This document shows, piece by piece, positions 2,357 to 17,383 of a stretch of 32,000 bases of DNA (positions within the stretch are counted from its first letter, which is position 1; every line of letters begins with the position of its first letter). The position numbers and the translations under genes are program-made. The notes under the pieces were generated by a model. The model was not told the DNA's origin, made no database searches, and saw only the letters and a list, made by a program, of their open reading frames with translations. Origin of the DNA: Aciduliprofundum boonei T469. GTDB lineage: Archaea > Thermoplasmatota > Thermoplasmata > Thermoplasmatales > Aciduliprofundaceae. The DNA lies in contig NC_013926.1 of the NCBI RefSeq assembly GCF_000025665.1, positions 870,001 to 902,000 on the forward strand, read 5' to 3'.

Positions 2357-4187
2357 TTTCCTCACCAATAGTTCTTGCTTCCAAGGAGAAAATGTATTGT
2401 GAGGCATAGATCTCGTGGGATAGGAGATATGTTGAATAAACTATTGCCCATAGAGCTAGGAGCGGAGGTACAATAAGCCACCATTTATCCCAGTACCCTG
2501 TAAAATACGCGTTTGAAATCATCCATCCCCAAGTTGGAACCGTATAATTTCCAAATCCCAAGAATGATATGCCTACTTCAAGCAATAGTGCCATGGTCAC
2601 TGCACTAAGGGCATATACTGTCGATATTCCCTTTATTTCTGGAAATATGTGAACTAATATTATTCTCCAGTGTCCAGCTCCTGATAATTTTGCGCTTTCT
2701 ACGAATGCCTTTTCTTTAACAACCTTCGTATAATTTCTAACAGCTCTTGCTTCCAAGGGTGAGAGTGCAAATATGGAAGCCCATATAGTTGCTTCTATGT
2801 GATGAGATATGCCAAACAAATAAATCATAAGAGCTGCATAGCCGATCGCAGGTATGAACAGAAAAGAATCTGAGAGAAGAAGCAGTAATTCATCAGTAGT
2901 CCCGCCGAAATATCCTGCAATCACTCCCCAGAGTGTACCTAAGAGAAGAACTATTGCTCCGCTTACAAATGCAATATACAACTCGCTTCTAAAGCTCCAT
3001 AGGAGTTGAGAGAAAACATCCCTTCCGGCAAAATCGGTGCCCAGGATATATTTTTTACTTGGTGGTAGAGGAGTTATCATCTTTCCAGAATAGCTGTACT
3101 GTTGGACATCTTTTTGATTTTCCAAAATAGCTAAAAGATAGGTTGTATGTGACATCTCTGTAAGGAGGATGTTGTATACATTCACATCTTTTCCCCACTG
3201 GATAGCTCCATCTGTTAGTATAAATCCTATTTTTCCATTTTTGAAAATCACTCCTATGCCATCTATAAACGGGCTTGCTACATATTTCTTTACATCATCA
3301 ACTTTCCAAGAAAAACCGTTTTTGAGGACATCCACCTTCCCAAACACGCCAGATGGAGAATAAGCAAAAAGAATCCCTCCACGATACTCTAAGGATGTAA
3401 TTTCACATGGCATTTGTATATCTGCCCTCTTGCTTCCATTTTCTATGGATAATGCCTCTATTTCGTTATGAGAAGCTATGTATAATTTATCGTTTCCATA
3501 GATGGGCAAGAATATTGGATTTGATGTGAAATTTCCTCTTTTCTCCCACACAATTTTTCCATTGGATGTTATATCAATGATTTTATCGTGAAAGGATACA
3601 AAAATATGGTTGTAATCATAATGCAATCCTAAGGGTTTTTGATGCGCTACAATGTGCCATAATGGCTTTGTAGAGAATCCGTAAGGGCTGTATTGGAATG
3701 CGTATAAACCTGTGCTGTTGTAAGTAACAAACCCTGTAAAAGAAGAGAAGGGCGGATTGAGAATGTAGATAGAAACAGTATCGTTTATAGGGTATCTTAC
3801 AAGAGCGGTGCCTGAAAATACATAGATATAATTTTGGTTGTAAAACACAGGAAAGCCATGGGGATATATTCTAAGAATCTTTATGTCTGAATAGTTTTGT
3901 AATGGTAAATTCTCTTCAAATGTGATATTATGGTTCAGAATATTGTAATATATGAATTCAGAACTCTCGGTTATCATATAAAATTCATCTTCATAAGCGT
4001 TCATTCTAACTATTTTATAAGGAAATGAATAATTGGCAACTATTTGGGGTACAAATATATCTGTAGGTGGGGCTCTATAGCTCAGAGGTGGCCGTAGAGG
4101 CATTATGGGTACTAGGAGAGCAATAATTATGTAAGTGATAATCACGGCAATAGCGACTTTTCCCTTGAGAGATACTTTCAGTTTCAT
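2343..4187 (-). CDS. ABC transporter permease, OppC/DppC-like, with ~370-aa N-terminal extracytoplasmic beta-propeller-like domain
   Basis: One N-terminal TM helix (VAIAVIITYIIIALLVPIM) is followed by a Tyr/Asn-rich region. That region has many N-x-S/T sequons and PQQ/beta-propeller-like strands (ITSNGKIVWEK, LTDGAIQWGKD). A canonical OppC entry motif follows (ILGTDFAGRDVFSQLLWSFRSEL), then 5 more TM helices with the EAA-loop region (ESAKLSGAGHWRIILVHIFPE). The start is ATGA-coupled to the upstream permease. Confidence 0.85.
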   Translation of the reverse strand: MKLKVSLKGKVAIAVIITYIIIALLVPIMPLRPPLSYRAPPTDIFVPQIVANYSFPYKIVRMNAYEDEFYMITESSEFIYYNILNHNITFEENLPLQNYSDIKILRIYPHGFPVFYNQNYIYVFSGTALVRYPINDTVSIYILNPPFSSFTGFVTYNSTGLYAFQYSPYGFSTKPLWHIVAHQKPLGLHYDYNHIFVSFHDKIIDITSNGKIVWEKRGNFTSNPIFLPIYGNDKLYIASHNEIEALSIENGSKRADIQMPCEITSLEYRGGILFAYSPSGVFGKVDVLKNGFSWKVDDVKKYVASPFIDGIGVIFKNGKIGFILTDGAIQWGKDVNVYNILLTEMSHTTYLLAILENQKDVQQYSYSGKMITPLPPSKKYILGTDFAGRDVFSQLLWSFRSELYIAFVSGAIVLLLGTLWGVIAGYFGGTTDELLLLLSDSFLFIPAIGYAALMIYLFGISHHIEATIWASIFALSPLEARAVRNYTKVVKEKAFVESAKLSGAGHWRIILVHIFPEIKGISTVYALSAVTMALLLEVGISFLGFGNYTVPTWGWMISNAYFTGYWDKWWLIVPPLLALWAIVYSTYLLSHEIYASQYIFSLEARTIGEETKSK

Positions 4188-5776
4188 CTTCTCACCCTTG
4201 GATCAAGGAAGTAAATCACAATGTCTGAGAATATAGAAGCGGCTATCATTACTAATGAGAAATATATAATTGCAATTTGAATCTGAAATGGATTGCCGTT
4301 TATTGTACCTTTGAATAGAATTAGCCCAATTCCCTTTATGTGAAATATAACTTCTAAGAACACCTGTGCTGTCAAGATCCATCCAAAATTCAGCACCAAA
4401 TCTGTCATTGTAGGAATCATTGTACTTTTCTTTATGAATTTCTTAATCCTCTTTGGAGTTAATCCCACTGCCTGAAATGTTTTAACATAGGGCTCCATGT
4501 ATTCTCTGTTGGCTATAGAATGGGCTATCAAATAAGGTCTAGCAATGGTTAAAAGTGAGAGAATGAGAGAAGCAATAATGATTCTTATTCCCTCTTGCCA
4601 CCCATTTGTAGGAGAAACTAGAGCATCGTATAATAAAGGCCAGTTCTGGAATGTTTGTAAAATAACTAAAGATGCGTAGAAGGTTGGTATAGAGTATAAA
4701 GCTAAAAATATGGCAGCATATATGTCTAAAGAGCGAGGGCTCTTTTTGCGGATGGCCAAGTAGAGTGATGAGAAATATGTTATCACTGTAGTTAATATGA
4801 ATATTGTGAGAGACACAATAATGGCATTTTTAAGGTCTATGGGCTGTGTACCCCAGTTTACTCCCTTTGTTATTCCCCCCGTTAAAATTAGATGCCACCA
4901 GTTCAAGTACTGATCATACCAAGGTCTGTCAAGGTGATAGTATTTTATTATATAGAATCTCATAACTATATCTGATATCCCCCCAACTCTAACCTGTGGG
5001 GGTGGACCAAAAACCCAAAGAATGTAAAATAGGATGGTCAGGACTATAAAAAGTGCAAATAAATTTCTGAGTGTGCTCCTTATAAGAAGTTTTATACCTT
5101 TAACACGCCCCCCTCTAAATTTATATGCTATAAATACAAACACACCAATTAATGCGGCCAAGAATGAATAGGCATAAATGCTCATCCGGTAATAGTATTC
5201 CTCTCTGAATTTTATGATAATGGAGCTATCAAATCTCCCTTTAATTTTATTCTTCTCAGTAATTGAATCAATTAGATTGCTCTGTAGAATAGTATCGTTT
5301 TTCGGAAGGGCTATTGAGAACATACCTGAAACATCAGGAAGGCTTATCTTTAGAGTATGGTCATATGTGCCATTTAAATAAAATGTGAAATTAAAGCTTA
5401 TAGCGTAATATGATGAAGTGTTTACAGGCATAGGAAAACTATAATTCTCATACTTGTGTATCCCTTTTAAATTAACTATGGGATTTCTTCCATCTATAGT
5501 TAGGTTATGAAAAATCAAAAAATAATTTCCTGCAGGTGTGAAATTTAATTTCATCATATTTTCATCAAGCAACTTTAAAAATTCCGAGAAATCCAGGTAT
5601 CCAGAATGGTCTTTATCGTACTCTTTTTTTAATTGCGGAGAGAAAATCTGTTTTATAAATATATGTCCAGAGTATCTATCTTTAATTTCAGAATTAATAT
5701 TTGAGTTTTTAGCGTGAATTGAAGGTATTAGCAAGATTGAAATTATGAAAAGTACAATGATAATCTTTTTAATCAT
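4184..5776 (-). CDS. ABC transporter permease, OppB/DppB-like, with ~200-aa N-terminal extracytoplasmic domain containing an EF-hand loop
   Basis: It starts with a signal/anchor helix (MIKKIIIVLFIISILLIPSIHA) and a sequon-rich ectodomain. OppB hallmarks follow: LDRPWYDQYLNWWHLILTGG, the EAA-loop region EPYVKTFQAVGLTPKRIKKFIKKSTMIP, and the C-terminal DIVIYFLDPRVRR. Confidence 0.85.
   Translation of the reverse strand: MIKKIIIVLFIISILLIPSIHAKNSNINSEIKDRYSGHIFIKQIFSPQLKKEYDKDHSGYLDFSEFLKLLDENMMKLNFTPAGNYFLIFHNLTIDGRNPIVNLKGIHKYENYSFPMPVNTSSYYAISFNFTFYLNGTYDHTLKISLPDVSGMFSIALPKNDTILQSNLIDSITEKNKIKGRFDSSIIIKFREEYYYRMSIYAYSFLAALIGVFVFIAYKFRGGRVKGIKLLIRSTLRNLFALFIVLTILFYILWVFGPPPQVRVGGISDIVMRFYIIKYYHLDRPWYDQYLNWWHLILTGGITKGVNWGTQPIDLKNAIIVSLTIFILTTVITYFSSLYLAIRKKSPRSLDIYAAIFLALYSIPTFYASLVILQTFQNWPLLYDALVSPTNGWQEGIRIIIASLILSLLTIARPYLIAHSIANREYMEPYVKTFQAVGLTPKRIKKFIKKSTMIPTMTDLVLNFGWILTAQVFLEVIFHIKGIGLILFKGTINGNPFQIQIAIIYFSLVMIAASIFSDIVIYFLDPRVRR
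5582..5617 (-). other. Canonical 12-residue EF-hand Ca2+-binding loop inside the permease ectodomain
   Basis: The minus strand translates to DKDHSGYLDFSE followed by F. Every position satisfies the PROSITE-style EF-hand loop pattern as I recall it (D-x-[DNS]-x-[DENSTG]-[DNQGHRK]-x-[LIVMC]-[DENQSTAGC]-x-x-[DE]-[LIVMFYW]). Confidence 0.6.
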
Positions 5777-5859
5777 TAAGGAAGGGGATGATTTCAGAGA
5801 AGATAAATTTAACTATAAATTTGGCAAAAAAATTAATATTTTTAAAGAGATTTGTAACT
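5777..5859. promoter_or_regulatory. Divergent promoter region between the permease operon (-) and polB (+)
   Basis: This is an AT-rich spacer with several TATA-like boxes (aaatttatag / ttaaatttat around 5803-5820; aattaatattttta around 5830-5845). AAGGAAGGGG directly precedes the ATG at 5788. The attaatat box sits about 25 nt before the alternative ATG at 5860, which fits a leaderless start. Confidence 0.4.
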
Positions 5860-7611
5860 ATGAGAACTTTGTATTTCAAAACTCTTGCGAAAACTGAGAG
5901 CGGATATATAAATCCAAAAAAAGATAGCATTTATATGCTTGCTCTACAAACCAATAATATTAGGATTTTAAAAGGAAATGAAAAAGATATAATAGAAAAA
6001 TTCGTAGAAATTTTCAATGAGTACAATCCTGATCGAATTGTTGGATTTAAACAGGATACCGAAGATTTCCCGTTGCTCTACGAAAGGGCTAAGAGATATG
6101 ATATAAATTTAAATCTTGGTAGAGATGGGAGTGCTATAGATTTTTCTGGGAAATATTTTAGGGGTATAATTCTGAAGGAAACAAAAATTCAAGGGAGAGA
6201 AAATATAGACCTATTTGCCATAGCTTGGCGCGATTTTCCGAGATTGCCTACCAAGGAAATAGACGAGCTTGCCAATGCTTTAGAAGTTAAGGGATTTGAG
6301 AGAATCCCCCAGTTCAGAATTAGGGAAAAGAGTGATGAAGAGTTGGAATCGTATTTGAAAAACTATGTGAAAATAATTGTAGAGATAGCGGATGCCATAT
6401 TACCGTTTGAGGAGAGTATATCAGGTATATGTGGTATCCCAATTGACAGGCAAACGAGAATGACTGTGGGTGAATTGATAGATGTTGTTGTGGCCAGAGA
6501 GATGAAACGGAGAGGTATAGATAAGATGAAAGTGGGAAAATCCAAAAAGTATGAAGGGGGCTATGTATGGTTAAAGGAGCCAGGCGTGTATGAGAATATA
6601 ACCTATCTGGATTTTCAAAGCATGTATCCCAATATCATTAAAGCGTGGAACATCAGCCCTGAAACTGTGGACATGGGTGGGGGCGAGGAAGTGGAAATTG
6701 AAGGTGTTAAACATAAAATAAAAAAAGATGTTCGTGGTGTTATTCCAGAACTTGTTGATGATTTTCTATCCAAAAGATTGGAGTTAAAGAGAAAATTGAA
6801 GGATAAGTACGATAAGAGAATTGACGCTGAGCAGAAGGCCCTGAAGGTCATGGCAAATGCTATGTATGGTTATATGGGCTGGAATGGAGCATCATATTAC
6901 AATAGAAACGCCGCCGAATTGATTGCTGCTTTGGCTAGATATTACATAAAGAATGTGCAGAGAATTATAGAGGAAATGGGAGGCACAATAATTTATGTGG
7001 ATACTGATGGCATTCAATTTATTGGAGGAGATTGGAAGAAAATCATGAACAAAATCAACGATGAATATCCTCTAAATATTGAATTGGAGAGAATAGTGCA
7101 GCGGGGAGTTTATTGGACTAAGAAGAAGTATGCACATCTTTATGATGGTAAGGTAACTGGTGTAGGGGTAGAGTATATAAGGAGAGATTACCCCAAGATA
7201 ATAAAAGATGCACAGAGGCAAATTGTAGAGCATTTGCTTAAAGGGAATGTAGAAAGAGCGAGGGAGCTCAGGAGAAAATATAGGAATATGATAAAAGAAG
7301 GTAAATTTGAAATTGAAGATATTGCGGTGGTTGAGCAGTTAACAAAGAAACCGGAGGAATATGAGAAAGCCACGAAAGCCAGCATAGCTGCTAAAATTTT
7401 GATGGAAAATTACGGGATTGAAGTGCATAGGGGAATGTACATTTACATAGCGATAGTAAAGGGAGTTGGAGGTCCAACATATAGGGCTAGGCCTATCGAA
7501 ATGGTGAGAATTGAGGATTTAGATTTATCCTACTACCTTTCAATGTATGATGATACGATAAACAGAACATTTGAGCCCTTTAAAGTGTCTCCCACTAACC
7601 AGTGGTTTTGA
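5788..7611 (+). CDS. polB: Family B DNA polymerase, short form (PolB2/Dpo2-like): polymerase motifs intact, N-terminal domain absent, exonuclease motifs degenerate
   Basis: Motif A is YLDFQSMYPNII, motif B is KVMANAMYGYMG, motif C is YVDTDG (6994-7011). The KxY motif is WTKKKYAHL, and VEYIRRDYP is present. The Exo I position reads LYFKTLA instead of FDIET. Exo II reads GFKQDTEDFPLL (Asn lost). Exo III Y-x3-D is not recognisable (SYLKNY). An alternative start at ATG 5860 (MRTLYFK...) is plausible. Confidence 0.9.
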   Translation: MISEKINLTINLAKKLIFLKRFVTMRTLYFKTLAKTESGYINPKKDSIYMLALQTNNIRILKGNEKDIIEKFVEIFNEYNPDRIVGFKQDTEDFPLLYERAKRYDINLNLGRDGSAIDFSGKYFRGIILKETKIQGRENIDLFAIAWRDFPRLPTKEIDELANALEVKGFERIPQFRIREKSDEELESYLKNYVKIIVEIADAILPFEESISGICGIPIDRQTRMTVGELIDVVVAREMKRRGIDKMKVGKSKKYEGGYVWLKEPGVYENITYLDFQSMYPNIIKAWNISPETVDMGGGEEVEIEGVKHKIKKDVRGVIPELVDDFLSKRLELKRKLKDKYDKRIDAEQKALKVMANAMYGYMGWNGASYYNRNAAELIAALARYYIKNVQRIIEEMGGTIIYVDTDGIQFIGGDWKKIMNKINDEYPLNIELERIVQRGVYWTKKKYAHLYDGKVTGVGVEYIRRDYPKIIKDAQRQIVEHLLKGNVERARELRRKYRNMIKEGKFEIEDIAVVEQLTKKPEEYEKATKASIAAKILMENYGIEVHRGMYIYIAIVKGVGGPTYRARPIEMVRIEDLDLSYYLSMYDDTINRTFEPFKVSPTNQWF

Positions 7612-9088
7612 TTTTACCCCTAATCTTCACTGCCTTTCCCTTTTTCTGCTGGAGCATGTCAATATGGCTCATTTTTGCAATACCCCATCCCCTCAATTCA
7701 TCCTCGTATACTACGGCTACTTCATCCTCTTCCCTTATATCTTCTGTTGAATTTAGAATACCTGCTGCAAAAACATCTCCCTCTGGATAAAAATCGTCTA
7801 TGTATACGGTATATTTCTCATTTTTTGCCAAGCATTTTGCGGATTCTTCCGTGAGTGTTAGCATCCCCTTTTGAGGATTGTAACTGAATATTCTTTTCCT
7901 CTCTTTCCATATATTGAGCTGGTAGTATCTTCCCTTTATCTTTGCTTCATCCAATAACTCTTCGCAACATCCAAATTGGAATCTAGCCAAACTCTTGAAA
8001 TTCTCTCTCTCAAGCACATTCCTTGGGATATGGTAATCCAATTTTTTTGTTGATTTTTCTAGTTCTTCATAATCCTTACCCCAAATTGTATGTGCTCCGA
8101 AATCATTTAGGATATCCTCTAAGAATCTCATGCTCTCTGGTAAAAATGATATTATTTCCTCGTATTCAAACTTTGAAAGATACCATTCTAAGGTATCCCT
8201 TATCAATTTCTTCTCCTCTTCGTACCAATGTCCTATCACAGGTATGTCATAATTTTGGGCGGGATAGAACCTTTCAAGCTCCCTTGGTACAAGGGCCAAA
8301 GGAGAGGTTAAGATTACCTCGTGCATGGTGGCTTTTATATGCTCTCTCATTTCTCTGTGCGATTTTGATATTGAATATGGCTTCTTAGCACTGCAGGGTA
8401 TGAGAAGCAAATATTTAGCCCAAGACGGTTTTTTATACCTATCTTTCAAACGCCCGATCCATCTCCTCACATCGGGCCTATAAAGAGAGTCCAATGTTAC
8501 AGCATTTATCTGAGGATTCCAAATGGGATAAAAATTTTCAATTAAAGAATAGTAGTTCATATCTAGATACCTCAATATTTCCTTGGCTTTGTTATCCGCT
8601 ATGCTCTCTACAAGCTCTCTGAGCAATCCTTTTTTCAAAGCAATCTTTGTTTGAGAGATAATAAATTTTGATATTGGCGGGGCATCATCAATTCTTCCTA
8701 CCAATGAATAATCTTCTATGTGCTCTAAAGAATCATCAAATATATCATACCCAAGATAAGTTAGGATAGGAATGAGATGAGGTGGAGCGCCCGGAGCGTA
8801 AAACAATTTATCAAATCCAAGTTTGTATCTGAGCTTAATAGTGTAATCTACAAAATTTGTAGTATTTCTTAAGCGAGAATTTATATGTGGTATCAGATAA
8901 ATATCATCCGCAATTTTTATTTCTCCTTCGTTCATCTCTGGTGTGTAAAGTACATCCCTTCCAATTTCAAAATTAAGAAATTTGAATGTATTTCCATTGA
9001 ATTCTATATCCTTTCCTGTCTCTAAGAGCAATGGAGTTTCCATCGTCCCTCTTGTAATTTTTGCTAATCCAAATCTTTTAACGAGCAT
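7595..9088 (-). CDS. arcS: Archaeosine synthase ArcS (TGT-like N-terminus, DUF5591 core, C-terminal PUA domain)
   Basis: It contains the ArcS signature PC-X3-KPY-X2-S-X2-H exactly (IPCSAKKPYSISKSH). The C-terminal region is PUA-like (DVFAAGILNSTEDIREEDEVAVVYEDELRGWGIAKMS). The ATG lies 4 nt after the stop of the giant gene. Confidence 0.9.
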   Translation of the reverse strand: MLVKRFGLAKITRGTMETPLLLETGKDIEFNGNTFKFLNFEIGRDVLYTPEMNEGEIKIADDIYLIPHINSRLRNTTNFVDYTIKLRYKLGFDKLFYAPGAPPHLIPILTYLGYDIFDDSLEHIEDYSLVGRIDDAPPISKFIISQTKIALKKGLLRELVESIADNKAKEILRYLDMNYYSLIENFYPIWNPQINAVTLDSLYRPDVRRWIGRLKDRYKKPSWAKYLLLIPCSAKKPYSISKSHREMREHIKATMHEVILTSPLALVPRELERFYPAQNYDIPVIGHWYEEEKKLIRDTLEWYLSKFEYEEIISFLPESMRFLEDILNDFGAHTIWGKDYEELEKSTKKLDYHIPRNVLERENFKSLARFQFGCCEELLDEAKIKGRYYQLNIWKERKRIFSYNPQKGMLTLTEESAKCLAKNEKYTVYIDDFYPEGDVFAAGILNSTEDIREEDEVAVVYEDELRGWGIAKMSHIDMLQQKKGKAVKIRGKIKTTG

Positions 9089-9092
9089 AGAA

Positions 9093-12000
9093 TCACTCGA
9101 AATTAAACGGAGTGCCGCATTTCAGACATTTTCCTGCTCTCTTCGCACAAGGCAAATGGTAAACTGCACCACAGGTATCGCATATTACAATGTCCATGCC
9201 TGGAAGTATCGTTCCTCTGCAGAGAGTGCATTTAACCTTTTCTTTATTCTTCTCGATATGGAAACCTTTCTTTGATATTTTGTACTCTACTTCAAATTCC
9301 TCCTCGTATTTCTTTCCATCAAATCTTTCATAACTAATTTTTACATTTATTTTTTCTCCCTTTCCTTCTGCAAGGAAGCTCTCAACAATTTCCTCGGAAT
9401 CTTTTGCAATTTTCATTATTGTTATATCGCCCTCGGTCTTTAAAGAGCCGTTTAAGCTTAAGTGTACATTACGAGCATCCGTGCTACCTTCATTCCTAAC
9501 TCTGATTTTTGCTAAATACTTATCATTTACCTTTTGAGTACTGTCTATGGCTACAACTAATTTCGGTTTGAGTTTTTCAATCTCATCCCAAATTTCATTC
9601 TCTATATCTTCCATAACTTTTATTCCCTTCTCCAAATCCTCCTGCGAGGATAAAGCATCCTTTAATCTTTTTATGTATGAATCCATATTCAACCCGAGAG
9701 AAATGGCGGATTTGATTAATTCTTTGAGTTCCATTGCCTTCTTGTTGAACTCTGCTACTCTATTGCGATACTCACCTACATACTTTATCGCATCTTCGTA
9801 AATTTTTATCGCACTCTCATAGTTCCCCTTTTCTACATTCTCTAAAATATTCCTTTCGTACTCTTCTGCTTTCTTTTTGCTGTACTTCATAACCATTTCT
9901 TTTGCCCTTGCTGCTCTATCTTTAGTGTATTCCTTAATATAAGTTTCAAAGTTCTTCTCGAGCTCTTCAAGCTCGCTCATGGCTATGTCATAATCCATAT
10001 CATTTAACTCATCCATCAATTTTGATGCCCTATCTCTATAATCTCCCAAGTTCAATCCAAAAGTCTCAAATTTATTTAATTCATTCATGAATTCCTCGAT
10101 ATCGTCTCTTATTTTTTGTTTAATGATTTCAACCATCTTATCTTTAAGAGCTTCATAATATTCTAAAAATTCCTTCGGGCTATCTTTGAGCTTTTCTAAT
10201 TTACCTCTCTCTTTATTCAAATCAATATTGGCCTTAATCTTTGTCTCTCCAATAATCTTACTCATCCTCTCAAACTCATCCATCTTATCCTTCATTATAT
10301 TTGCAACTATGCTAAGCGCTTTCTCTTTGAGTTTAGGTATTAAGGAGTTTAAAGCAACGACATCTTTGTTTGCAAAGGCATTGTTTATCTCTTTGATATT
10401 ATCTTCTAGTTCATCTCTCAAATCGAATTCTATGATGGGTTTTAGAATCTCTTCGTATCTCCTTCTATACTCTCCTATAAACTCTTCAATCTTCTTTCTT
10501 GCCTCCTTATGAGCTTCATTTACAAGCTTGAGTGCAGAATCATAATGTAAGCCCTGCAACTCTTTTTTTGCATTGGCGAGCGGGATTAGAACATTCCTCA
10601 TATCTATACCAAGGGCTTTGCCCTGCTCAATATACCTTTTGATCTCTTTATTCTTATCCTTGATTATTTCAATTATTTTCTCAATATTCCAAAGCTTTTC
10701 ACTAACATTCATGGCTTTGTCTATTGCTTCCCTGTACTTCTCATTCAAAAACAGGCTCTTAGCGTTTCTATACTCTGAAATAATATCCTTGGGTATTAGT
10801 CCCTGCATCTTTTTCATCTTCACATCCAGAGTTTTTAAAATTCCATAGGCAGTGTTTTTCTGCATACCTACATTTTCAATCTCTTCCATTGCATTCAAGG
10901 TGAGAGTCAAAGAATCCCTATAATTCCCTTTCTTCATAGAGGATTTTGCCCTAACAAGCATAGATTCTGCCGTGGTAATATTCTCACCCATTCTTCTCAT
11001 TCTTGTTAATTCTAGTTCAACATCATTTATCATGCTCTCAATTTTCTCTTTAATCCCTTTCTCGATCTCTTTAGCCAAATCCTCGAGTCCCTTCTTTCTG
11101 TGTTCTATGTTCTCTGATTTTTCTAGCTCTTTAGCCCGCTCCAAATAGGGCTTTGTGTCAATTCCAAGGGATGAAGCTACAGTTATCAATCTTCCAATTC
11201 TGTTCTCCAGATCCATTAGTTTCATTTTCTCTCCATGTATCTTCTTTATCTCGCTCTCAAGGTTCTGGAGCATCGAGAAAGCTTCTTCTACATTCCCTTC
11301 CCAGAATTTCTCTTTGCTGGCAGCTATTGGGGAATCATCAACATTCACTCCCAAATCCCCCAAATCTGATATTAGCTTTTCAAGACGATTTACATAGTTA
11401 TTGAAAATAATTTCAATGGATTTTTTTAATCTCTCAATAGTTTTCTTTCCTATCTCTTCCAGATTCTCATACTTTCTCTCCTTATATCTTATGAAGAAAT
11501 CCTCTGTGATAGTTAAATAATCCTCTTTGAAATTGAAATCTCTCATAATCTTTCCTATACTCTCAATTTCCCTGCGAATCACATTAATTCTTCCTTCAAT
11601 TTCAATTGATTTAGCTAAATCAAAACCATTCTTTATGCTCTCTTCAATATCTTCAAATTCATTGTTCTCTATTTTTCTTTCTATTTCCCTTATTAGCTCT
11701 TCCAATTTTTCAACATTGTATCCCAAATCTAAAAGCTCATTCTTTCTCTTCTCTAACTCATCTTTCATTGAGAGGGCTTTATTCATTTTATTCATTAGAT
11801 CTTTAATTCTCTCATCAATCTCTGCAGTGTATTTTATGACATCCTGGTATCTTTTATCTTTTAAACTCTCTGCCGCCATATTTAGCATATCTATGATCCC
11901 GTTCTTTTCTAAATCTATCTTCATCTTACTGGCTTTATCTGCCGAATCCTTGACGGAATCATACGCTTTTTGAGCTAGGTTTTGAGAAAGGGATTCAATT

Positions 12001-13889
12001 ATCACATTGCAATCTTTTAGATTTTTCTCAACATTCTCTAGGTCTTTTCTCTCCAAAGATTCTTTTGCTTTGTTTAAAAGCTCCTCTACCTTCTCCGTAT
12101 CCTCTCCCAAATCTTTCAAAAATGAAATACTGGTTTCCGCTTCTTTAATCATTTTTTCATATTTCTCTCTCTCAATATTGAAAATTGAATCTTGGAGTTC
12201 TATAAAACTATCTAAAACTTTTTCAATTTCCCCCTTCTCTATAAGCTCGAAGACACTATTAATCTTTTTGTCTATCTCCTTCACCTTGTATTTCTTAAAA
12301 TCTTCAAGTTTGTTTCTGATATCTTTGTAAATTCTATCGTATAATTTTTCTTCAATTTTTCTTAGCACGATTATGGAATCTTTGTAATTCTCATCCTTAA
12401 GAAGTTTTTCAACATTTTCCAGCTCCACTTTTATATCCCTCAAATCAATCTCTGCACTAATACCCTTGTTGAGTATTGAAGATAAATCATTGTACAATGT
12501 ATTTGCTATATCTCTCAAACTGAATATAATCAATTTTTTAAGTTCGTCGACCATCTTTTCCGCATCTTCTGGATTTTTCTCCAGAGTAGCTTCAATATTC
12601 TCTATTTTATCTTCAACTCCTTCAAGTATTATATTCTCCTTTTTTAGTTCTTCATTGGATTTTTTAAGCTCTTCAATCTCTATTTTTAGCTGGGAATAGA
12701 GGTTCATTTTCCTTTCTAACATTTGAAGGGCTTTTAGGATGGTATCATACGCTTTTTTATGCTTTCCTATTTTGAGGAAGTTTTTGGCATTATCAATCAT
12801 CCCTAAATAAGGTGAAATATCAATACCTTTCTTCTTAGCATCAAGTAGCTTATCTCTTGCATTCTTCATAAGTTCCAATACCTTGTGTAATTTTATCTTC
12901 TCAGCTTCTTCCGTTGCCTTTTTTACCAGTTCTACGGCATTATCAAGATCATCATTTTCATAAGCGATTTTTGCTTTGTTGAAGATTTCCATAGGGCCAC
13001 TCATGTCCTCATTCATCTCTTCTCCTTCTCTAATCAAGAATTCTGATATGTCCAATAATTTTGTGAAAAACAGTTTAAAAGAATCTTTGGCAGATTCTAA
13101 AAATTCTTTCGATATCTTTATTGCGGATGAATAATCTCCAGATTCCAACGCACTGAGTGCATCTTTCTTCTTGTCCAAATCTATGGATAAAGAGTAATGG
13201 GCTGATTTTGCCAGATTTATAAGTTTATCCCCCTCTTTTATATTATTTTCAACAATATTTTTTGCAGAACTTTTTATCCTCTCCTCTATCTTTTTAAGTT
13301 GTGCAAGAACATCCTGAGGATTTCCCTCTATTTTATCGATCTCGTCCCTTACCCATTCAAAACCTTCAATACTTACTACTTTAGCTAAAAGCTCTCTCTT
13401 TCTTCTCTCCACCACATTTTTTAATGAGGAGGATATTTTTTCATTTATATCTTGAAGAATTTTCAAGCTTGAAGCAAAATCTGAAGAGAACTTCGATCTC
13501 GCTTCTTCTAAGTATGCCTTTAATCTTGCAGAATCTTCAACATTACCGGATGATAGAATCTCATCAATTTTCTTTGCCTCATCTTCAAATATTTTTTCAA
13601 TATCTTTCTGAATATCCTTGTAGAGATTTTCTAATAAGCTTAATGCCCTATCAAAATCTTTAACCTCGAAGGAGCTCTTTGCATTTTTTAGTTTTTCTTC
13701 ATAACTCTTTGTGTTTTTGTAATTTTTAAGCGTTGCAATTCCCTGCTCAACATCTTTTATATATTTCTCGCATTTCTCTCTCTTCTCCTTGATTGCCTGT
13801 GCCTTCTTTACAAGCTCCCTCTCGATTTTTATCCCGCTAAGGTATGGACTTGGCAATTTCAAACCTCCTATACATTCATTCTCTTTCAA
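9093..13889 (-). CDS. Giant (up to 1598 aa) K/E/I/L-rich helical-repeat protein with C-terminal CARDB-like beta-sandwich and C4HC3 zinc finger; no signal peptide, TM segment or P-loop seen
   Basis: The 4.8-kb ORF is uninterrupted. The opposite strand yields only short S/F/L-rich ORFs. No in-frame ATG occurs before codon 292, so initiation must be non-ATG. Candidates are TTG at 13889 (11 nt after the ftsZ stop) or TTG at 13856, which lies 6 nt after a perfect GGAGGT (13863-13868). Domain content is described in separate features. Confidence 0.85.
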   Translation of the reverse strand: MKENECIGGLKLPSPYLSGIKIERELVKKAQAIKEKREKCEKYIKDVEQGIATLKNYKNTKSYEEKLKNAKSSFEVKDFDRALSLLENLYKDIQKDIEKIFEDEAKKIDEILSSGNVEDSARLKAYLEEARSKFSSDFASSLKILQDINEKISSSLKNVVERRKRELLAKVVSIEGFEWVRDEIDKIEGNPQDVLAQLKKIEERIKSSAKNIVENNIKEGDKLINLAKSAHYSLSIDLDKKKDALSALESGDYSSAIKISKEFLESAKDSFKLFFTKLLDISEFLIREGEEMNEDMSGPMEIFNKAKIAYENDDLDNAVELVKKATEEAEKIKLHKVLELMKNARDKLLDAKKKGIDISPYLGMIDNAKNFLKIGKHKKAYDTILKALQMLERKMNLYSQLKIEIEELKKSNEELKKENIILEGVEDKIENIEATLEKNPEDAEKMVDELKKLIIFSLRDIANTLYNDLSSILNKGISAEIDLRDIKVELENVEKLLKDENYKDSIIVLRKIEEKLYDRIYKDIRNKLEDFKKYKVKEIDKKINSVFELIEKGEIEKVLDSFIELQDSIFNIEREKYEKMIKEAETSISFLKDLGEDTEKVEELLNKAKESLERKDLENVEKNLKDCNVIIESLSQNLAQKAYDSVKDSADKASKMKIDLEKNGIIDMLNMAAESLKDKRYQDVIKYTAEIDERIKDLMNKMNKALSMKDELEKRKNELLDLGYNVEKLEELIREIERKIENNEFEDIEESIKNGFDLAKSIEIEGRINVIRREIESIGKIMRDFNFKEDYLTITEDFFIRYKERKYENLEEIGKKTIERLKKSIEIIFNNYVNRLEKLISDLGDLGVNVDDSPIAASKEKFWEGNVEEAFSMLQNLESEIKKIHGEKMKLMDLENRIGRLITVASSLGIDTKPYLERAKELEKSENIEHRKKGLEDLAKEIEKGIKEKIESMINDVELELTRMRRMGENITTAESMLVRAKSSMKKGNYRDSLTLTLNAMEEIENVGMQKNTAYGILKTLDVKMKKMQGLIPKDIISEYRNAKSLFLNEKYREAIDKAMNVSEKLWNIEKIIEIIKDKNKEIKRYIEQGKALGIDMRNVLIPLANAKKELQGLHYDSALKLVNEAHKEARKKIEEFIGEYRRRYEEILKPIIEFDLRDELEDNIKEINNAFANKDVVALNSLIPKLKEKALSIVANIMKDKMDEFERMSKIIGETKIKANIDLNKERGKLEKLKDSPKEFLEYYEALKDKMVEIIKQKIRDDIEEFMNELNKFETFGLNLGDYRDRASKLMDELNDMDYDIAMSELEELEKNFETYIKEYTKDRAARAKEMVMKYSKKKAEEYERNILENVEKGNYESAIKIYEDAIKYVGEYRNRVAEFNKKAMELKELIKSAISLGLNMDSYIKRLKDALSSQEDLEKGIKVMEDIENEIWDEIEKLKPKLVVAIDSTQKVNDKYLAKIRVRNEGSTDARNVHLSLNGSLKTEGDITIMKIAKDSEEIVESFLAEGKGEKINVKISYERFDGKKYEEEFEVEYKISKKGFHIEKNKEKVKCTLCRGTILPGMDIVICDTCGAVYHLPCAKRAGKCLKCGTPFNFE
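9117..9230 (-). other. C4HC3 zinc-finger module (PHD / RING-CH-like spacing) at the C-terminus of the giant protein
   Basis: Residues 1554-1591 read CTLC-x12-CDTC-x4-H-x2-C-x6-CLKC. That gives eight ordered Zn ligands, C-x2-C-x12-C-x2-C-x4-H-x2-C-x6-C-x2-C. Confidence 0.65.
9279..9569 (-). other. CARDB-like beta-sandwich domain of the giant protein
   Basis: Residues ~1441-1537 are KPKLVVAIDSTQKVNDKYLAKIRVRNEGSTDARNVHLSLNGSLKTEGDITIMKI...INVKISYERFDGKKYEEEFEVEY. They show alternating beta-strand periodicity and the v.V.N.G...A.NV.v.L motif typical of CARDB / NPCBM-associated domains. Confidence 0.5.
9570..13742 (-). repeat. About 23 tandem, highly degenerate ~62-codon (~186-nt) protein-level repeats
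   Basis: The anchor position is the Y/F/hydrophobic residue of the [GKE]-[ND]-[YF]-x-x-[AS]-h motif. It recurs at residues 79,138,191,253,315,377,440,502,555,617,681,745,807,867,928,990,1052,1116,1177,1241,1300,1357,1419, with spacings of 53-64, mostly 61-64. Nine units also carry an LG-[IVLY]-[DN] motif 19-22 residues before the anchor (G355,595,723,847,909,968,1094,1278,1399). The repeats are not conserved at the DNA level. Confidence 0.7.
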
Positions 13890-13900
13890 GATTTAAATTT

Positions 13901-14947
13901 TTACCTTTGAGATCTCTCCATCTCGTAAGTCTTCAAGCTCTTTACTTCATACTCTTCCCCAAGAATTGGGATTTTTATATCGGTCAAAAGTACCAGTACT
14001 CTCATTTTATTTTCAAATTGCGGATCTATCCTTGCCCCGATCATAAGATTTGCATTATCTTTCATCAAGGAGGATATGGCATCTACGGCGGAATATACGG
14101 CTGAAAGTGGTACATTCTCTCCCGTTGTAATATGTATCACACCCCCACTTGCTTTTGAGTAGTCCATGTCCATAATGAGAGGCCTGTTTAAAGCATCTAC
14201 AACTATTTTCCTCGGATCACTGGCATCTCCTTCCCCTATTAGTATGGTGGAGTATCTTCCATTCTTCATTATCCTCTTCAAATCCTCCAGATCTATATTC
14301 ATCAAAGATGGCTTGGTGAGAACATCCACAAAGGACATTATTGTATAGCTTATAAGCTGGTCCATAACAATGAATGCCTTTTTGATTGGTAAATTTGGGG
14401 CAATTTCCATAAGTTTGTCATTTTCCAAAACTATTAGTGTGTTGGATAATTCAACGATTCTTTTCAACCCTTCTTTTGCCTTTATGAACCTCGCTCTTTC
14501 AATCTTGAACGGCATGGTGGCTATCGTTATAACCAATGCTCCTTTTCTCTTTGCAATTTCTGCAATTATGGGAGTTGCCCCTGTGCCTGTGCCCCCTCCA
14601 AGCCCAGTTGTTAGAAAAACAATATCTATGCCATCAAATATATTTTCAAGCTCCTTTGATGCAAGGATTGCACTCTTTTCTCCTATTTCCACCAAGCCCC
14701 CAGAGCCCAAGCCCTTTGTGTATTTTTTCAAAAGAATCTTTTTATCTGCCTCAACAGTTCTTAGGTTATTTATATCTGTATTAATCGCCACAGTGGGTAC
14801 GGATAGTCCTAATTTTTTCATCCTGCTTACAGCATTGCATCCAGCTCCGCCTATCCCCACAACCATGATATTAATTTTCTCCTCGTAGAGCTCCCGCTCA
14901 ACAAGAGTGTATGAGGAAGCCCTTCTTATGAGGGATTCTATGCTCAA
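13901..14947 (-). CDS. ftsZ: FtsZ-family tubulin-like GTPase (FtsZ2-like by synteny with an upstream RHH gene)
   Basis: VVGIGGAGCNAV (G1), AINTD, and the tubulin signature GGGTGTG (14579-14599) are present. IVLENDKL and the T7 loop NIDLEDLKRIM (N-x-D-x-x-D retained) are also present. The start must be TTG at 14947: it abuts the RHH stop (TAATTG), and GGAGGGTGA lies 7-11 nt upstream. The first in-frame ATG would delete the residues preceding strand S1. Confidence 0.9.
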   Translation of the reverse strand: MSIESLIRRASSYTLVERELYEEKINIMVVGIGGAGCNAVSRMKKLGLSVPTVAINTDINNLRTVEADKKILLKKYTKGLGSGGLVEIGEKSAILASKELENIFDGIDIVFLTTGLGGGTGTGATPIIAEIAKRKGALVITIATMPFKIERARFIKAKEGLKRIVELSNTLIVLENDKLMEIAPNLPIKKAFIVMDQLISYTIMSFVDVLTKPSLMNIDLEDLKRIMKNGRYSTILIGEGDASDPRKIVVDALNRPLIMDMDYSKASGGVIHITTGENVPLSAVYSAVDAISSLMKDNANLMIGARIDPQFENKMRVLVLLTDIKIPILGEEYEVKSLKTYEMERSQR

Positions 14948-15331
14948 TTAACTCTCACCCTCCACAATTTCTTTTTTAATTCCCTCTTCAATCTCCTTCT
15001 TTGCAAGAGTGGATATTTGTCTTCTAACATACTCCCTAACGGCTGTTCTTATTGCATCATCCATATCCACTGCCTCTCCTGCCTCCACGAGCTTGACTAG
15101 CATCGCAACAGTGCCCTTTGGCAGATCTACACTTATCTTCTCAATATTGCGAGGCGCAAATTTCTCAGCTAGAAAATTCTCAATTGCAGTACGAACAACC
15201 TCAGATAAATTTTTGAACTCACCACTCTTGACTAACTCTTCCATTTTTTCCGCCGCATTGCGGGAGAGCCTGATTGTAATCCTTATTGAATCGGACATTT
15301 TAACTGCCTCTTTCCATGTTTTGTCTGACAA
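14948..15331 (-). CDS. Tandem ribbon-helix-helix (CopG/MetJ-type) DNA-binding protein, CdrS/CdrL-like
   Basis: One chain carries two RHH units: IRITIRLSRNAAEKMEELVKSGEFKNLSEVVRTAIENFL and EKISVDLPKGTVAMLVKLVEAGEAVDMDDAIRTAVREYV. The more likely start is ATG at 15298 (MSDSIRITI...), preceded by GAGG 8 nt upstream. The ORF-track start at 15331 is a TTG lying about at the predicted transcription start. Confidence 0.8.
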   Translation of the reverse strand: MSDKTWKEAVKMSDSIRITIRLSRNAAEKMEELVKSGEFKNLSEVVRTAIENFLAEKFAPRNIEKISVDLPKGTVAMLVKLVEAGEAVDMDDAIRTAVREYVRRQISTLAKKEIEEGIKKEIVEGES

Positions 15332-15403
15332 TAAGTATCACATAATGGGTATATATAATTTTCCCAGAGAAAAAGGTATTTACAGGTATGCAATAAGCCA
15401 ATC
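15332..15403. promoter_or_regulatory. Bidirectional promoter with a shared symmetric TATA box
   Basis: tatatataa at 15350-15358 is the only strong TATA element in the spacer. It lies ~25 nt from the start of the RHH ORF on the minus strand and ~45 nt from the ATG at 15404 on the plus strand. Confidence 0.45.
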
Positions 15404-16060
15404 ATGGACACTGCGAACGACCCAAGGATTCTCATGGCTGAAAAGTGCACAAAGGATATGAAGAATCTATTCAATAATATGCGAGGTGTTGGCAAAGAAG
15501 CATCTAAAATCATGAATGATATTGAAAGAAAGATTTTGGAGATAAAATACTCTTATGCAGAGCTTGATGCTTTGCAATCCTTACTTAAAGAAATAGAATC
15601 AAAAATTTTGGAGCTTTATGAGCTTCTTGGCGGAAAAGAATGGGTGAATAGATTGAAAAGAGTGAATATTGATGATGGGAGAATTGCAAAGGTGAAATTT
15701 TGTATGAATATCCTCTATAATCTATCCTCACGCCTAAAACTGCCAGATGATCCTGCCTACGCTGTGGATATAAGAATTGGTGAGATTGATAGTGTTATGA
15801 AGCACCCTAAAGCAGATAAATTGAAGATTTGTAATGTGAATGTTGGTAGAGTTATAACTGTGGTGACGAATATTCAAAATGTAAAAGAGGGAGAGAAATT
15901 GCCCGTAGCATTGCTCCCTCCTGCAGAGTTTTTTGGTATTGTGAGTGAAGGTATGTTTCTCTCTCATAACTTTAAAGAAGGTGCTCCGGGAGAATTGCCA
16001 AAGTTGGACGAGGATGAGTTAAATAACGCTCGTAAAGAGGTTTTAAAATATCTTAAATGA
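15404..16060 (+). CDS. tRNA-binding domain protein (Trbp111/CsaA/MetRS-beta-like OB fold) with N-terminal coiled-coil extension
   Basis: The C-terminal half is IRIGEIDSVMKHPKADKLKICNVNVGRVITVVTNIQNVKEGEKLPVALLPPAEFFGIVSEGMFLS, the classic tRNA-binding OB-fold pattern (hP.AdkL....VD.G......v.g......G..v.va). The start is uncertain (ATG 15404 or ATG 15434). Confidence 0.8.
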   Translation: MDTANDPRILMAEKCTKDMKNLFNNMRGVGKEASKIMNDIERKILEIKYSYAELDALQSLLKEIESKILELYELLGGKEWVNRLKRVNIDDGRIAKVKFCMNILYNLSSRLKLPDDPAYAVDIRIGEIDSVMKHPKADKLKICNVNVGRVITVVTNIQNVKEGEKLPVALLPPAEFFGIVSEGMFLSHNFKEGAPGELPKLDEDELNNARKEVLKYLK

Positions 16061-17383
16061 TTTCATTTCCTTTATTTTCAGGGGCATGGATAAATGCCTC
16101 CTTGCTATTACCGGGACCTCATACCATCTTTCTTTTATTTCCCTATCTAAAATCTTAAATTCTGCTGCATCCTCGGGAAGTTTTATTCTGCATTTCCTGC
16201 ATCTGTATCCCTTGCCCCTTCCTAAACTCTCCATCCTCCTTCCGCATTTTGGGCATCTTGGATTTGCCACTTTAACTCTTATTTCTGCTAATCTCAAAAT
16301 CCTTATTTTCTCAATGTTTATTGTTCTTGGCTCATCCCTAACGCTACCGTAAACTTCCACTTCATCTCCCACTTTCAATTTATTTATTGTATTCCTAAAA
16401 TTCTTTGTGGGCTCGTAAGCAGCGCAGTCGATTTTTCCAGTTGAATCTTCAATTTGGAATATTGCATGACCCCCTTCAATTTTTCTTGCCTCTTTCACCA
16501 CCTTTCCTCTTAAGATAACATTTTGATATTCTTTTACCTTCTTAATTCTTCTTTTTACTAGGTGCTCATCGGTACCTTGGTTTGTTAAGAATAGAAACCA
16601 AGCATTGTAAGGGGTGCTTTTTATCATGTCCTTTGCTTTTATTAGCTCTTCGGGCTCTAGACCTCTTATGCCAAAAAGCACAGGGGTTTTTGAATGGGGA
16701 GATATGGCCACATAATTGTTTTCATAATCATAATTGTCAAAAGTGTATCTTGTTTTTTTGTCCATCTCGATTACAGAATTTTCGTCAATGTATCGCTGCT
16801 CTTTCCATTTATCCTCCGGCAAGTAAGTTAGAAGCTCGTATGTAAACTTCCTGGCTCTCCAAGCTATTGATGCGGAAGCACCTATTATTCCCCTTCCATT
16901 TTTGAATTTGAAAAATTTTGCGTTATTCTCTTTTAAAACTCTCTCAACGAATTCGATATTCAAAACATTCCTAACTGCGTTCCAGTATAGCCATTCTGGA
17001 AGTTTTTTCTTAGAAATAACTATCCCTGGGTTAGTTGTGGGCTCTTCTAACACAAAATAATCTTTTAGGAGTGGAATTATATCATTTAAATCAAGTTCAC
17101 CATCTTTCCCGTACTTGAAAGCGTATATTTTCTCTCCCTCTATCTCCCCCACAACCTTCTTCTCTCCATAGCCCTTGCCAACTCTTATGCATACGGCTCC
17201 ATTTCCCCTTGTTTTCCAAGGTATGTTTGGATTCAACCTCACTAATCTTGGCGGGCCTATTAAATCCATACCTGAATCTTTTAATTTCTCAACGAGCACT
17301 TTTACGAGATATGTGGTGCACATTCCGTTGCGGGAGTCTGTATCGTCAATTCCAATATACACGCTCTTACATTCTCCTCGCAT
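16043..17383 (-). CDS. tiaS: tRNA(Ile2) 2-agmatinylcytidine synthetase TiaS
   Basis: The N-terminal motif is YIGIDDTDSRNGMCTTYL (DUF1743/TiaS kinase-like domain). An OB-fold region follows (ILRGKVVKEARKIEGGHAIFQIEDSTGKIDCAAYEP). A C-terminal zinc ribbon is present (CPKCGRRMESLGRGKGYRCRKC). Confidence 0.9.
   Translation of the reverse strand: MRGECKSVYIGIDDTDSRNGMCTTYLVKVLVEKLKDSGMDLIGPPRLVRLNPNIPWKTRGNGAVCIRVGKGYGEKKVVGEIEGEKIYAFKYGKDGELDLNDIIPLLKDYFVLEEPTTNPGIVISKKKLPEWLYWNAVRNVLNIEFVERVLKENNAKFFKFKNGRGIIGASASIAWRARKFTYELLTYLPEDKWKEQRYIDENSVIEMDKKTRYTFDNYDYENNYVAISPHSKTPVLFGIRGLEPEELIKAKDMIKSTPYNAWFLFLTNQGTDEHLVKRRIKKVKEYQNVILRGKVVKEARKIEGGHAIFQIEDSTGKIDCAAYEPTKNFRNTINKLKVGDEVEVYGSVRDEPRTINIEKIRILRLAEIRVKVANPRCPKCGRRMESLGRGKGYRCRKCRIKLPEDAAEFKILDREIKERWYEVPVIARRHLSMPLKIKEMKSFKIF

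Follow-up and report, generated by a model that had tools for sequence, protein, structure and literature searches.

A giant helical-repeat, Ig-like and RING-finger protein encoded beside an RHH-FtsZ gene pair in Aciduliprofundum boonei

The window analysed here is a stretch of 32,000 nucleotides (nt) from Aciduliprofundum boonei T469 (contig NC_013926.1), in which four co-directional genes on the minus strand encode a ribbon-helix-helix (RHH) protein, an FtsZ paralog, a giant helical-repeat protein and an ArcS-like archaeosine synthase subunit. A first-pass annotation had proposed the giant protein as a structural partner of the FtsZ polymer. All four genes were recovered exactly where it had placed them, as longest open reading frames (ORFs) at 14948-15331 (RHH), 13901-14947 (FtsZ), 9093-13889 (giant) and 7595-9088 (ArcS), and the proteins of the cluster are 83-99% identical to those of the metagenome-assembled genome (MAG) WAKY01000019 ('Aciduliprofundum sp.'). 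Tight packing as such is ordinary for an archaeal genome; that these four genes keep their arrangement throughout the order DHVE2, while the flanks change, exceeds chance. The features of the locus are given below in window coordinates; in the text, L-numbers denote homologue loci and P-numbers homologue proteins.

15349..15362, minus strand: promoter-like B recognition element (BRE) and TATA box of the RHH gene, GAAAATTATATATAC, conserved in orthologs, with a predicted function
14948..15298, minus strand: tandem ribbon-helix-helix protein, 116 amino acids (aa) from the putative start ATG 15298, CdrS-like by position
13901..14947, minus strand: FtsZ paralog of 348 aa, with a TTG start abutting the RHH stop codon and Tubulin and FtsZ_C domains
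13857..13900, minus strand: ftsZ-giant spacer, with the TATA-like AAATTTAAAT at 13891-13900 and the Shine-Dalgarno (SD) site GGAGG at 13864-13868
9093..13856, minus strand: giant protein of 1587 aa, with the N-terminal peptide MPSPYLS, ~24 units like tetratricopeptide repeats (TPR), an immunoglobulin (Ig)-like β-sandwich and a RING-type zinc finger
9570..13832, minus strand: helical-repeat region of the giant, from DSSP of AlphaFold2 (AF2) models and the repeat alignment
9285..9563, minus strand: Ig-like (CARDB-like) β-sandwich of the giant, residues ~1443-1535 in 1598-aa numbering
9099..9248, minus strand: Prok-RING_1 (C4HC3 cross-brace) zinc finger of the giant, residues 1548-1597 in 1598-aa numbering
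7595..9088, minus strand: ArcS-like archaeosine synthase subunit of 497 aa, with its ATG 4 nt past the stop codon of the giant

The stop codon of the RHH gene abuts the start of ftsZ as claimed, TAA meeting TTG (TAATTG at 14950-14945), and the gap of 4 nt between the giant and arcS also holds, the TGA of the giant being followed by ttct and then by the ATG of arcS. Two further figures, an 11-nt gap between ftsZ and the giant and a length of 1598 codons, are true only of the longest ORF, which begins at 13889. Because the orthologs begin with MPxPYLS, at 1587 aa, and GGAGG lies 7 nt before TTG 13856, the most likely start is this TTG; the gene would thus occupy 9093-13856, encode 1587 aa and follow ftsZ after a spacer of 44 nt. 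For the RHH gene the most likely start is ATG 15298, which gives 116 aa as in the orthologs (116-120 aa), against 127 aa for the longest ORF from TTG 15331. The RHH-ftsZ junction measures 0-5 nt in all orthologs, with the SD site inside the 3′ end of the RHH gene, and the RHH-ftsZ and giant-arcS pairs each look translationally coupled.

The giant had been described as a non-enzymatic repeat protein ending in a zinc finger, and on this the domain searches, a repeat hidden Markov model (HMM) and the AF2 models agree. The iterated HMM identifies 24-25 units of ~60 aa, each of which, by DSSP of the models, comprises a short helix of ~13-15 aa, a turn, a long helix of ~38 aa and a loop. The unit consensus is ...L-x-x-A-K-x-x-L-x-x-G/D-x-Y-x-x-A-i..., with the hairpin motif A-K-x-x-L-x-x-G-x-Y-x-x-A, and every unit ends in an inter-unit loop motif, G-[IL]-[DN]; in an irregular unit near residues 990-1030 the pattern E-x-E...Q is invariant across the family. 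The models were built on ortholog alignments and are locally confident, globally less so, with a mean pLDDT (predicted local distance difference test) of 79 over residues 1-1200 and 89 over residues 1101-1598. Foldseek found no fold match in the PDB for the helical part of the giant (best E 0.49). The repeats are called TPR-like, with an extended second helix, because relatives match ANAPC3 and TPR families in Pfam (best E 3.5e-11 for ANAPC3 and 1e-8 for TPR_2); the A. boonei giant itself yields only a sub-threshold TPR_2 match (E 0.024), and its units measure 60 aa as against the 34 aa of the TPR helix-turn-helix. We also considered the G-[IL]-[DN] loop as a counterpart of the 'GID' motif in archaeal FtsZ tails (PMC8178401), and took it for a helix-capping motif whose resemblance is probably coincidence.

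The Ig-like domain has seven β-strands, modelled at a pLDDT of ~90, and its Foldseek matches in the PDB are solely to β-sandwich domains (E ~3e-4). The C-terminus of the giant matches Prok-RING_1 (PF14446) with 54.9 bits (E 8.6e-15), the cutoff being 29.1. The eight zinc ligands (C1554, C1557, C1570, C1573, H1578, C1581, C1588 and C1591) are all invariant in the sequence sets A1 (20 sequences) and A2 (29 sequences), and in the most diverse set, A5 (30 sequences), seven are strictly invariant and the fourth cysteine nearly so. A Pfam scan of 30 family members detected Prok-RING_1 in 27, CARDB in 10, ANAPC3/TPR in seven and zf-RING_2 in 10. A membrane anchor within the giant was ruled out, as no transmembrane segment was found and Kyte-Doolittle hydropathy over 19 residues nowhere exceeds 1.24; lacking a hydrophobic segment, the protein is taken to be cytoplasmic. 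The view that no division protein of this architecture has been described stands after Foldseek searches of the PDB and full-text literature searches, which gave none, and the giant shows no sequence or fold similarity to EzrA, ZapA or spectrin-like regulators by Foldseek against the PDB, in keeping with the earlier statement that it is unrelated to them in sequence; nor does it resemble ZapB, SepF, CdpA or CdpB in sequence or fold.

A word-indexed search returned ~30 relatives, all unnamed or 'hypothetical', and phmmer against 1.84 billion cluster representatives at least 150 at E <= 1e-3, with 78 at E <= 1e-10. Lengths lie mostly within 1,440-1,640 aa despite identities of 17-25%, and every member that carries an organism name is from the Thermoplasmata. 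Length is thus conserved across the family, as are an N-terminal peptide (MPxPYLS...L-x-K-E-L-E-K-K-A in DHVE2, MSGYLKD...L-R-K-Q-L-E-E-K in other members), the irregular unit near residue 1000 and a non-ATG start codon. Eight of 10 DHVE2 orthologs have TTG, and a second clade, clade B (L050-L095), whose genes adjoin SMC-ScpAB, mostly has GTG. That a non-ATG start is conserved, in DHVE2 after a strong GGAGG, hints that a specific rate of translation, probably a low one, has been selected for. One carrier is in culture: AciM339_0080 (AGB03981.1, WP_015282633.1) of Aciduliprofundum sp. MAR08-339, annotated 'hypothetical' or 'RING finger protein'. No paper describing the family was found in the full-text literature searches; it is an undescribed protein family, and its combination of ~24 extended units with an Ig-like domain and a RING finger is likewise undescribed.

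Two variations within the family deserve mention. In one clade (L022, L024, L026, L027, L028 and L030) a basic tail, ...KPKVxRKKLAxKLG, is conserved after the RING finger and may be a membrane- or nucleic-acid-targeting peptide; the DHVE2 giant lacks it and ends right after the finger. There is also a second conserved DHVE2 locus (L029:30-8078; also L032, L034, L036, L025 and L031), encoding a 508-aa protein that carries DUF835 and, at its N-terminus, a hydrophobic stretch like a transmembrane segment, then two tandem paralogs (~1,110 and ~1,015-1,027 aa), each with DUF835 domains, helical repeats, a β-sandwich and Prok-RING_1, and at the 3′ end the citrate lyase beta and alpha genes.

The linkage of the giant to the RHH-ftsZ pair was found in all 11 assessable DHVE2 loci and in none of ~60 loci of other family members or of DHVE2 paralogs. 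In nine complete loci (L001/L007, L005, L008, L009, L011, L013, L014, L021 and L023) RHH-ftsZ lies directly 5′ of the giant; two more (L016 and L019) have an FtsZ fragment at the contig edge, and no locus with upstream sequence is an exception. On the other side arcS lies directly 3′ of the giant in 18/18 DHVE2 loci with downstream sequence. Identity of the giant falls to 35% across the loci that keep the block, and the outer flanks vary, with TiaS and a tRNA-binding gene in some and TFIIB and GATase in others, and with PolB present or absent.

The first half of the cluster has a known counterpart. Pfam RHH_1 matches residues 17-55 of the RHH protein (E 4.7e-11), a second RHH occupies residues 65-102 (DUF7120 and ORF56 matches), and the two halves align to each other (E 3e-6). 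CdrS (NF058555) is the best NCBIfam match, at 52.8 bits in two stretches; the equivalog definition is 100 bits and a single RHH of ~60 aa, whereas this protein has 116 aa and two RHH domains. By position it does resemble CdrS: in A. boonei, in the orthologs and in a sister clade its gene immediately precedes ftsZ in the same orientation. The label 'CdrL-like' had to be dropped, as there is no second RHH gene upstream: the gene found there encodes a divergent tRNA-binding-domain protein, and CdrL has not been found outside Halobacteria, to which it is restricted (PMC7439475). Co-transcription of cdrS-ftsZ2 has been described (PMC7439475), and according to Pende et al. ftsZ2 often adjoins parD (RHH) genes (PMC8178401). 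The RHH-ftsZ half of the cluster is the known RHH-ftsZ bicistron, with the twist of a tandem RHH.

The TATA box upstream of the RHH gene had been thought the only strong one of the cluster. It is real, at ~15349-15362, and its region is conserved in orthologs (L005, L014, L007 and L021), but it is not the sole one, since AAATTTAAAT at 13891-13900 is conserved too. Downstream of the RHH box (within window 15299-15362) come a conserved element of ~21 nt, GATACTTATTGTCAGACAAAA, and then the SD-like GGAAAGAGG. The former could be the operator through which the tandem RHH protein regulates its own gene, or else an element of the 5′ untranslated region; it is not seen in the ftsZ-giant spacer, and inspection by eye found no operator common to that spacer and the RHH promoter region.

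The second gene of the cluster encodes, judged by its domains and motifs, a true FtsZ. It matches Tubulin (E 1.1e-36), FtsZ_C (E 9.2e-16) and TIGR00065 (309.6 against a cutoff of 295.2), and its translation contains the tubulin signature GLGGGTGTG and the T7-loop MNIDLEDL, with the acidic residues that GTPase activity in the polymer requires, both conserved in the orthologs; among PDB entries it comes closest to M. jannaschii FtsZ1 (248 bits), with CetZ at 51 bits. The orthologs, a divergent clade specific to DHVE2, are 56-98% identical, every other FtsZ being at 47% or below, and in a neighbour-joining tree of 115 hits the DHVE2 FtsZ clade stands on its own long branch with P0072 and P0073. 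With C-terminal-motif labels and no reference FtsZ2 among its sequences, this tree did not separate FtsZ1 from FtsZ2. The only pointers to FtsZ2 are the upstream RHH context and a C-terminal ...EVR motif. The C-terminal linker is short, and most orthologs close with [FY]-[ET]-[VI]-[RK], which is also similar to the 'GID' tail through which archaeal FtsZ binds SepF (PMC8178401).

The complement of Aciduliprofundum sp. MAR08-339 comprises five members of the FtsZ family, one SepF (AGB04201.1) and no ESCRT-III (PMC8178401, Supplementary Data 1). One of the five, AGB03980.1, has an accession consecutive with that of the giant AGB03981.1, and therefore the giant-linked FtsZ is one paralog of several in a cell that already has a membrane anchor. 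Five FtsZ-family proteins in a genome of 1.44 Mb is an unusually large tubulin-family complement in its own right (PMC8178401, Supplementary Data 1). Two other ideas about the giant were set aside here: that it substitutes for a missing SepF, since SepF is present in Aciduliprofundum, and that it has a MIT-domain or ESCRT link, since it has no MIT match in Pfam and A. boonei lacks ESCRT (PMC10936438).

We favour, tentatively and as a possibility still short of an even chance, the reading that the giant is a multivalent cell-cycle scaffold with the FtsZ paralog among its clients, and that the region consists of two gene pairs. On this proposal RHH-ftsZ and giant-arcS would be two old pairs, juxtaposed in the DHVE2 ancestor and adjacent since. 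The giant itself would be a cytoplasmic, multivalent protein-protein scaffold of low abundance, the weak TTG start codon pointing to low expression. TPR clamps bind C-terminal peptides in CHIP, Hop and PEX5, and purely by analogy the TPR-like units of the giant may bind short peptide tails, while its Ig and RING end may dock a partner, of the E2 or ubiquitin-like (Ubl) type in some lineages. In DHVE2 the clients would be cell-cycle proteins, above all the upstream FtsZ paralog, whose C-terminal tail [FY]-E-[VI]-R is conserved; in clade B the client would be SMC-ScpAB. For the structural-partner reading with which the work began, the linkage kept within DHVE2 and the build of repeats and zinc finger still speak; a promoter-like spacer of the giant's own, the absence of ftsZ elsewhere and the closer tie to arcS speak against it. 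Any functional link of the giant to FtsZ is read from gene order alone.

The spacer between ftsZ and the giant bears directly on this. A single transcription unit had been claimed for the cluster, and that claim is weakened by an invariant TTAAAT box, GGAGGTTTGAAA and a TTG start in the spacer of nine of 10 orthologs. In these nine the spacer, 44-49 nt long, is conserved in its nucleotide sequence; in L007 it measures 12 nt. Directly after the ftsZ stop codon the nine aligned orthologs read (G)GTAAA-(A/T)AT-TTAAAT, with TTAAAT invariant, and GGAGGTTTGAAA follows ~23 nt past TTAAAT, ahead of the TTG. By what is known of archaeal promoters, this spacing would fit a BRE/TATA box with transcription starting at the SD-bearing leader, and the TATA-like box, SD and TTG of this spacer look, from their sequence and layout, like the giant's own promoter. 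The same 14-mer class also occurs ~45 nt 5′ of the H+-PPase start codon in the window, and giant homologues in unrelated contexts carry TATA boxes of their own (CTTTATATC in L003, CTTTTATATAC in L045). RNA structure was ruled out as the cause of the conservation, RNAalifold giving -1.1 kcal/mol and 5 pairs with no covariation. There is no obvious terminator after ftsZ and, with the 12-nt spacer of L007, read-through from the RHH promoter, and thus co-transcription, is likely in that locus.

A conserved promoter-like element in the spacer, together with the homologues' own TATA boxes, also speaks for a rival account, in which the giant would be a stand-alone, lineage-specific scaffold or structural protein with its own promoter, its adjacency to ftsZ or SMC-ScpAB being inherited and its clients unrelated to division. 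We regard this account as only slightly less probable than the scaffold reading. Further observations fit it: the neighbours of the family are highly variable, and archaeal ftsZ genes commonly lie among unrelated genes (PMC8178401). It sits less well with the likely co-transcription in L007, with the survival of the four-gene block amid shuffled outer flanks while the giant fell to 35% identity, and with the occurrence of two independent adjacencies to cell-cycle operons. For the latter, two such hits among ~13 context types correspond to p ~0.004, or ~0.04 allowing for the choice of category, in a rough post-hoc estimate that puts the share of division and segregation genes at ~0.7%.

Several further points weigh against the scaffold reading in its FtsZ form. 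The linkage to ftsZ is limited to one order and could be inherited synteny. Within 5-9 kb of the giant ftsZ is absent from L003, L004, L022, L024, L026-L028, L030, L035, L041-L049 and 46 metagenome loci, and likewise from the DHVE2 paralog loci (transmembrane segment and DUF835, two DUF835-repeat-RING proteins, citrate lyase). In the sister FtsZ clade of P0073 (47% identity) a 120-aa RHH gene overlaps ftsZ and is followed by convergent, unrelated genes, so that an RHH-ftsZ pair exists there with no giant. Other members of the giant family have mixed neighbours, namely Cgi121, an aminotransferase, ThyX, PCNA, a subtilase and a Ubl-E2 fusion. The presence of SepF and of four further FtsZ-family proteins in Aciduliprofundum means that no anchor or scaffold is obviously wanting. 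The AF2 models have a pTM (predicted template modelling score) of 0.54 for residues 1101-1598 and 0.39 for residues 1-1200, so they do not fix the overall arrangement of the repeats as rod or solenoid. Finally, the giant is tied more tightly and more deeply to arcS than to ftsZ, and this coupling, with a QueH neighbour elsewhere, either points in another direction or marks adjacency at these loci as a poor guide to function.

The other direction would be a tie to 7-deazaguanine (archaeosine) modification of tRNA, with the giant for example as a platform for ArcS. The spacing is certainly close, with 1-5 nt between giant and arcS in all DHVE2 loci, and it extends to two loci where the pair occurs without ftsZ: L003, where the giant is 25% identical, the order is eIF5A-agmatinase-giant-arcS and the gap is 6 nt, and L035, with an overlap of 4 nt. 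QueH follows 12 nt 3′ of an independent homologue, P0030 (L042:8849-9370, plus strand), and in L004 and L048 the giant is preceded by Cgi121 (KEOPS), so that neighbours from tRNA modification recur in a way comparable to those from the cell cycle. We nevertheless consider such a tie very unlikely, as most family members, including clade B and the basic-tail clade, have no ArcS gene next to them and no RNA-binding domain was found in the giant. To our knowledge, ArcS in characterised systems needs no giant-like partner, and a low-abundance enzyme sharing the transcript of a weakly translated giant would be the simpler explanation. The ArcS-like protein itself matches DUF5591 (E 7.7e-45), TGT_C2 and PUA; it falls below the cutoffs of NF053620 (410 bits against 600) and NF040592 (337 against 440), with E values of 1e-122 and 3e-100.

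The surroundings of arcS hold further observations. tRNA- or RNA-modification genes occur around the cluster (window 7595-9088, 15404-17383 and 864-2356): ArcS, the tRNA-binding-domain protein, TiaS (agmatidine synthetase), a Methyltrn_RNA_2 methyltransferase and a radical-SAM protein. The partner of ArcS is RaSEA, and the radical-SAM protein could be a candidate for it. A short family-B DNA polymerase of 607 aa with a weak exonuclease-domain match (window 5788-7611, plus strand) converges on arcS, the 3′ ends overlapping by 17 nt; it is kept as a neighbour in only some DHVE2 loci.

The second cell-cycle context came to light in a profile search, which placed P0310 and P0312 (1,496 aa) directly after SMC-ScpA-ScpB on the same strand (L045 and L046). 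Six sequences of this clade B, aligned with P0173 as the first, served as query against metagenomes and gave 46 loci with best-segment identities of 29-48% to P0173. In 42 of them SMC, ScpA and ScpB lie 5′ of the giant, as far as the contig reaches, and in the remaining four the contig begins less than 400 nt before the giant. This gene order is an independent hint of a cell-cycle role for the family, FtsZ and SMC-ScpAB being different machines of the cell cycle that precede its members in two separate lineages. Against such a role it must be said that HAL and MetK are kept downstream in clade B too, and the SMC-ScpAB adjacency may therefore be inherited.

The finger and its relatives raise one more possibility, namely that the giant is a RING-type, E3-like adaptor, a single-chain analogue of TPR-RING or U-box ligases such as CHIP, or of the TPR and RING subunits of the anaphase-promoting complex/cyclosome (APC/C); its TPR-like array would recruit substrates, possibly cell-cycle proteins, and its RING would work with an E2/Ubl system. 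The zinc ligands are, as described, invariant or nearly so across the family, and ANAPC3/TPR and zf-RING_2 matches recur in seven and 10 of the 30 members scanned. The homologue P0030, moreover, is divergently paired with a 223-aa Ubl-E2 fusion (L042:3656-4327, minus strand; Rad60-SLD E 2.9e-5, UQ_con E 7.6e-10), and this fusion hints that a Thermoplasmata MAG may hold a minimal set of Ubl, E2 and RING. The Pfam description of PF14446 reportedly ties the family to prokaryotic ubiquitin-like systems, a connection credited to Burroughs and colleagues in 2011. An E3-like adaptor is nonetheless unlikely in our view: an E2/Ubl neighbour occurs in only one of ~75 loci, genes for E1, E2, Ubl and JAB proteins were not found in the 32,000-nt window, and C4HC3 fingers are often plain interaction modules, PHD fingers being an example.

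If the scaffold reading is carried further, giant TPR-like/Ig/RING proteins would form a previously unseen class of cell-cycle hub, possibly E3-like, docking an FtsZ paralog in DHVE2 and SMC-ScpAB in the second clade; this stronger version strikes us as quite improbable. Were it true, the hub would organise or time the machinery of division and segregation, as an archaeal counterpart of ring organisers or of TPR-RING regulators of the APC/C type. Apart from FtsZ1, FtsZ2, SepF, CdpA and the PRC-barrel proteins, very few parts of the archaeal divisome have been identified, and the cell biology of Thermoplasmata is almost unexplored. The analysis defines a large unnamed family of conserved length (~1,500 aa) that adjoins ftsZ in one order and SMC-ScpAB in another clade, and with AciM339_0080, beside the FtsZ AGB03980.1, it offers a concrete, testable candidate from a cultured organism, which may be a cell-cycle factor peculiar to its lineage or a RING-type adaptor of archaea. 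Should the link prove merely positional, it would still serve as a useful warning about inferring function from archaeal gene adjacency.

Elsewhere in the window, two tandem paralogs of 189 and 190 aa with PhoU and TrkA_C (18878-20010, minus strand) adjoin a DUF134/HTH gene. An ABC-type permease (BPD_transp_1; 4184-5776, minus strand) carries an EF-hand-like calcium-binding motif at residues 51-70, an unusual pairing; the match is below the Pfam cutoff.

Among known systems, the nearest to the first half of the cluster is cdrS-ftsZ2 of Halobacteria (PMC7439475, PMC8406309), which likewise has a small RHH gene directly 5′ of ftsZ and translationally coupled to it. It differs in that the halobacterial protein is a single domain of ~60 aa, whereas the RHH protein here is a tandem of 116 aa without CdrL, and the described cdrS-ftsZ2 systems have no giant gene after ftsZ2. 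The DHVE2 FtsZ, with its end ...[FY]E[VI]R, is reminiscent of Hfx. volcanii FtsZ2, whose C-terminal peptide is GLDVIR. As regards the giant, EzrA, ZapA, ZapB, archaeal SepF, CdpA and the PRC-barrel protein CdpB invite a possible analogy as ring organisers, the giant being non-enzymatic, helix-rich and next to ftsZ; it is, however, five to ten times larger and, unlike EzrA and CdpA, has no transmembrane segment. In clade B the giant, a helical-repeat gene directly after SMC, kleisin (ScpA) and ScpB, recalls the HAWK (HEAT-repeat) subunits of eukaryotic SMC complexes, but its repeats are not HEAT by Foldseek or Pfam, and ScpB, the kite subunit, is retained. With the Prok-RING_1 (PF14446) proteins it shares a C-terminal C4HC3 binuclear finger above the Pfam gathering threshold; the Pfam forms are small or membrane-anchored bacterial proteins, whereas the finger of the giant caps ~1,440 aa of repeats and an Ig-like domain in a cytoplasmic protein that has so far turned up in Thermoplasmata only. 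The TPR-RING and U-box ligases, CHIP/STUB1 and the TPR subunits of the APC/C with Apc11, offer a resemblance that is architectural only, the giant being a single chain of 24 atypical 60-aa units with an extended B helix; like them, it pairs TPR-like repeats with a RING-type finger, its relatives match ANAPC3, and its genomic neighbours in two clades are cell-cycle genes.

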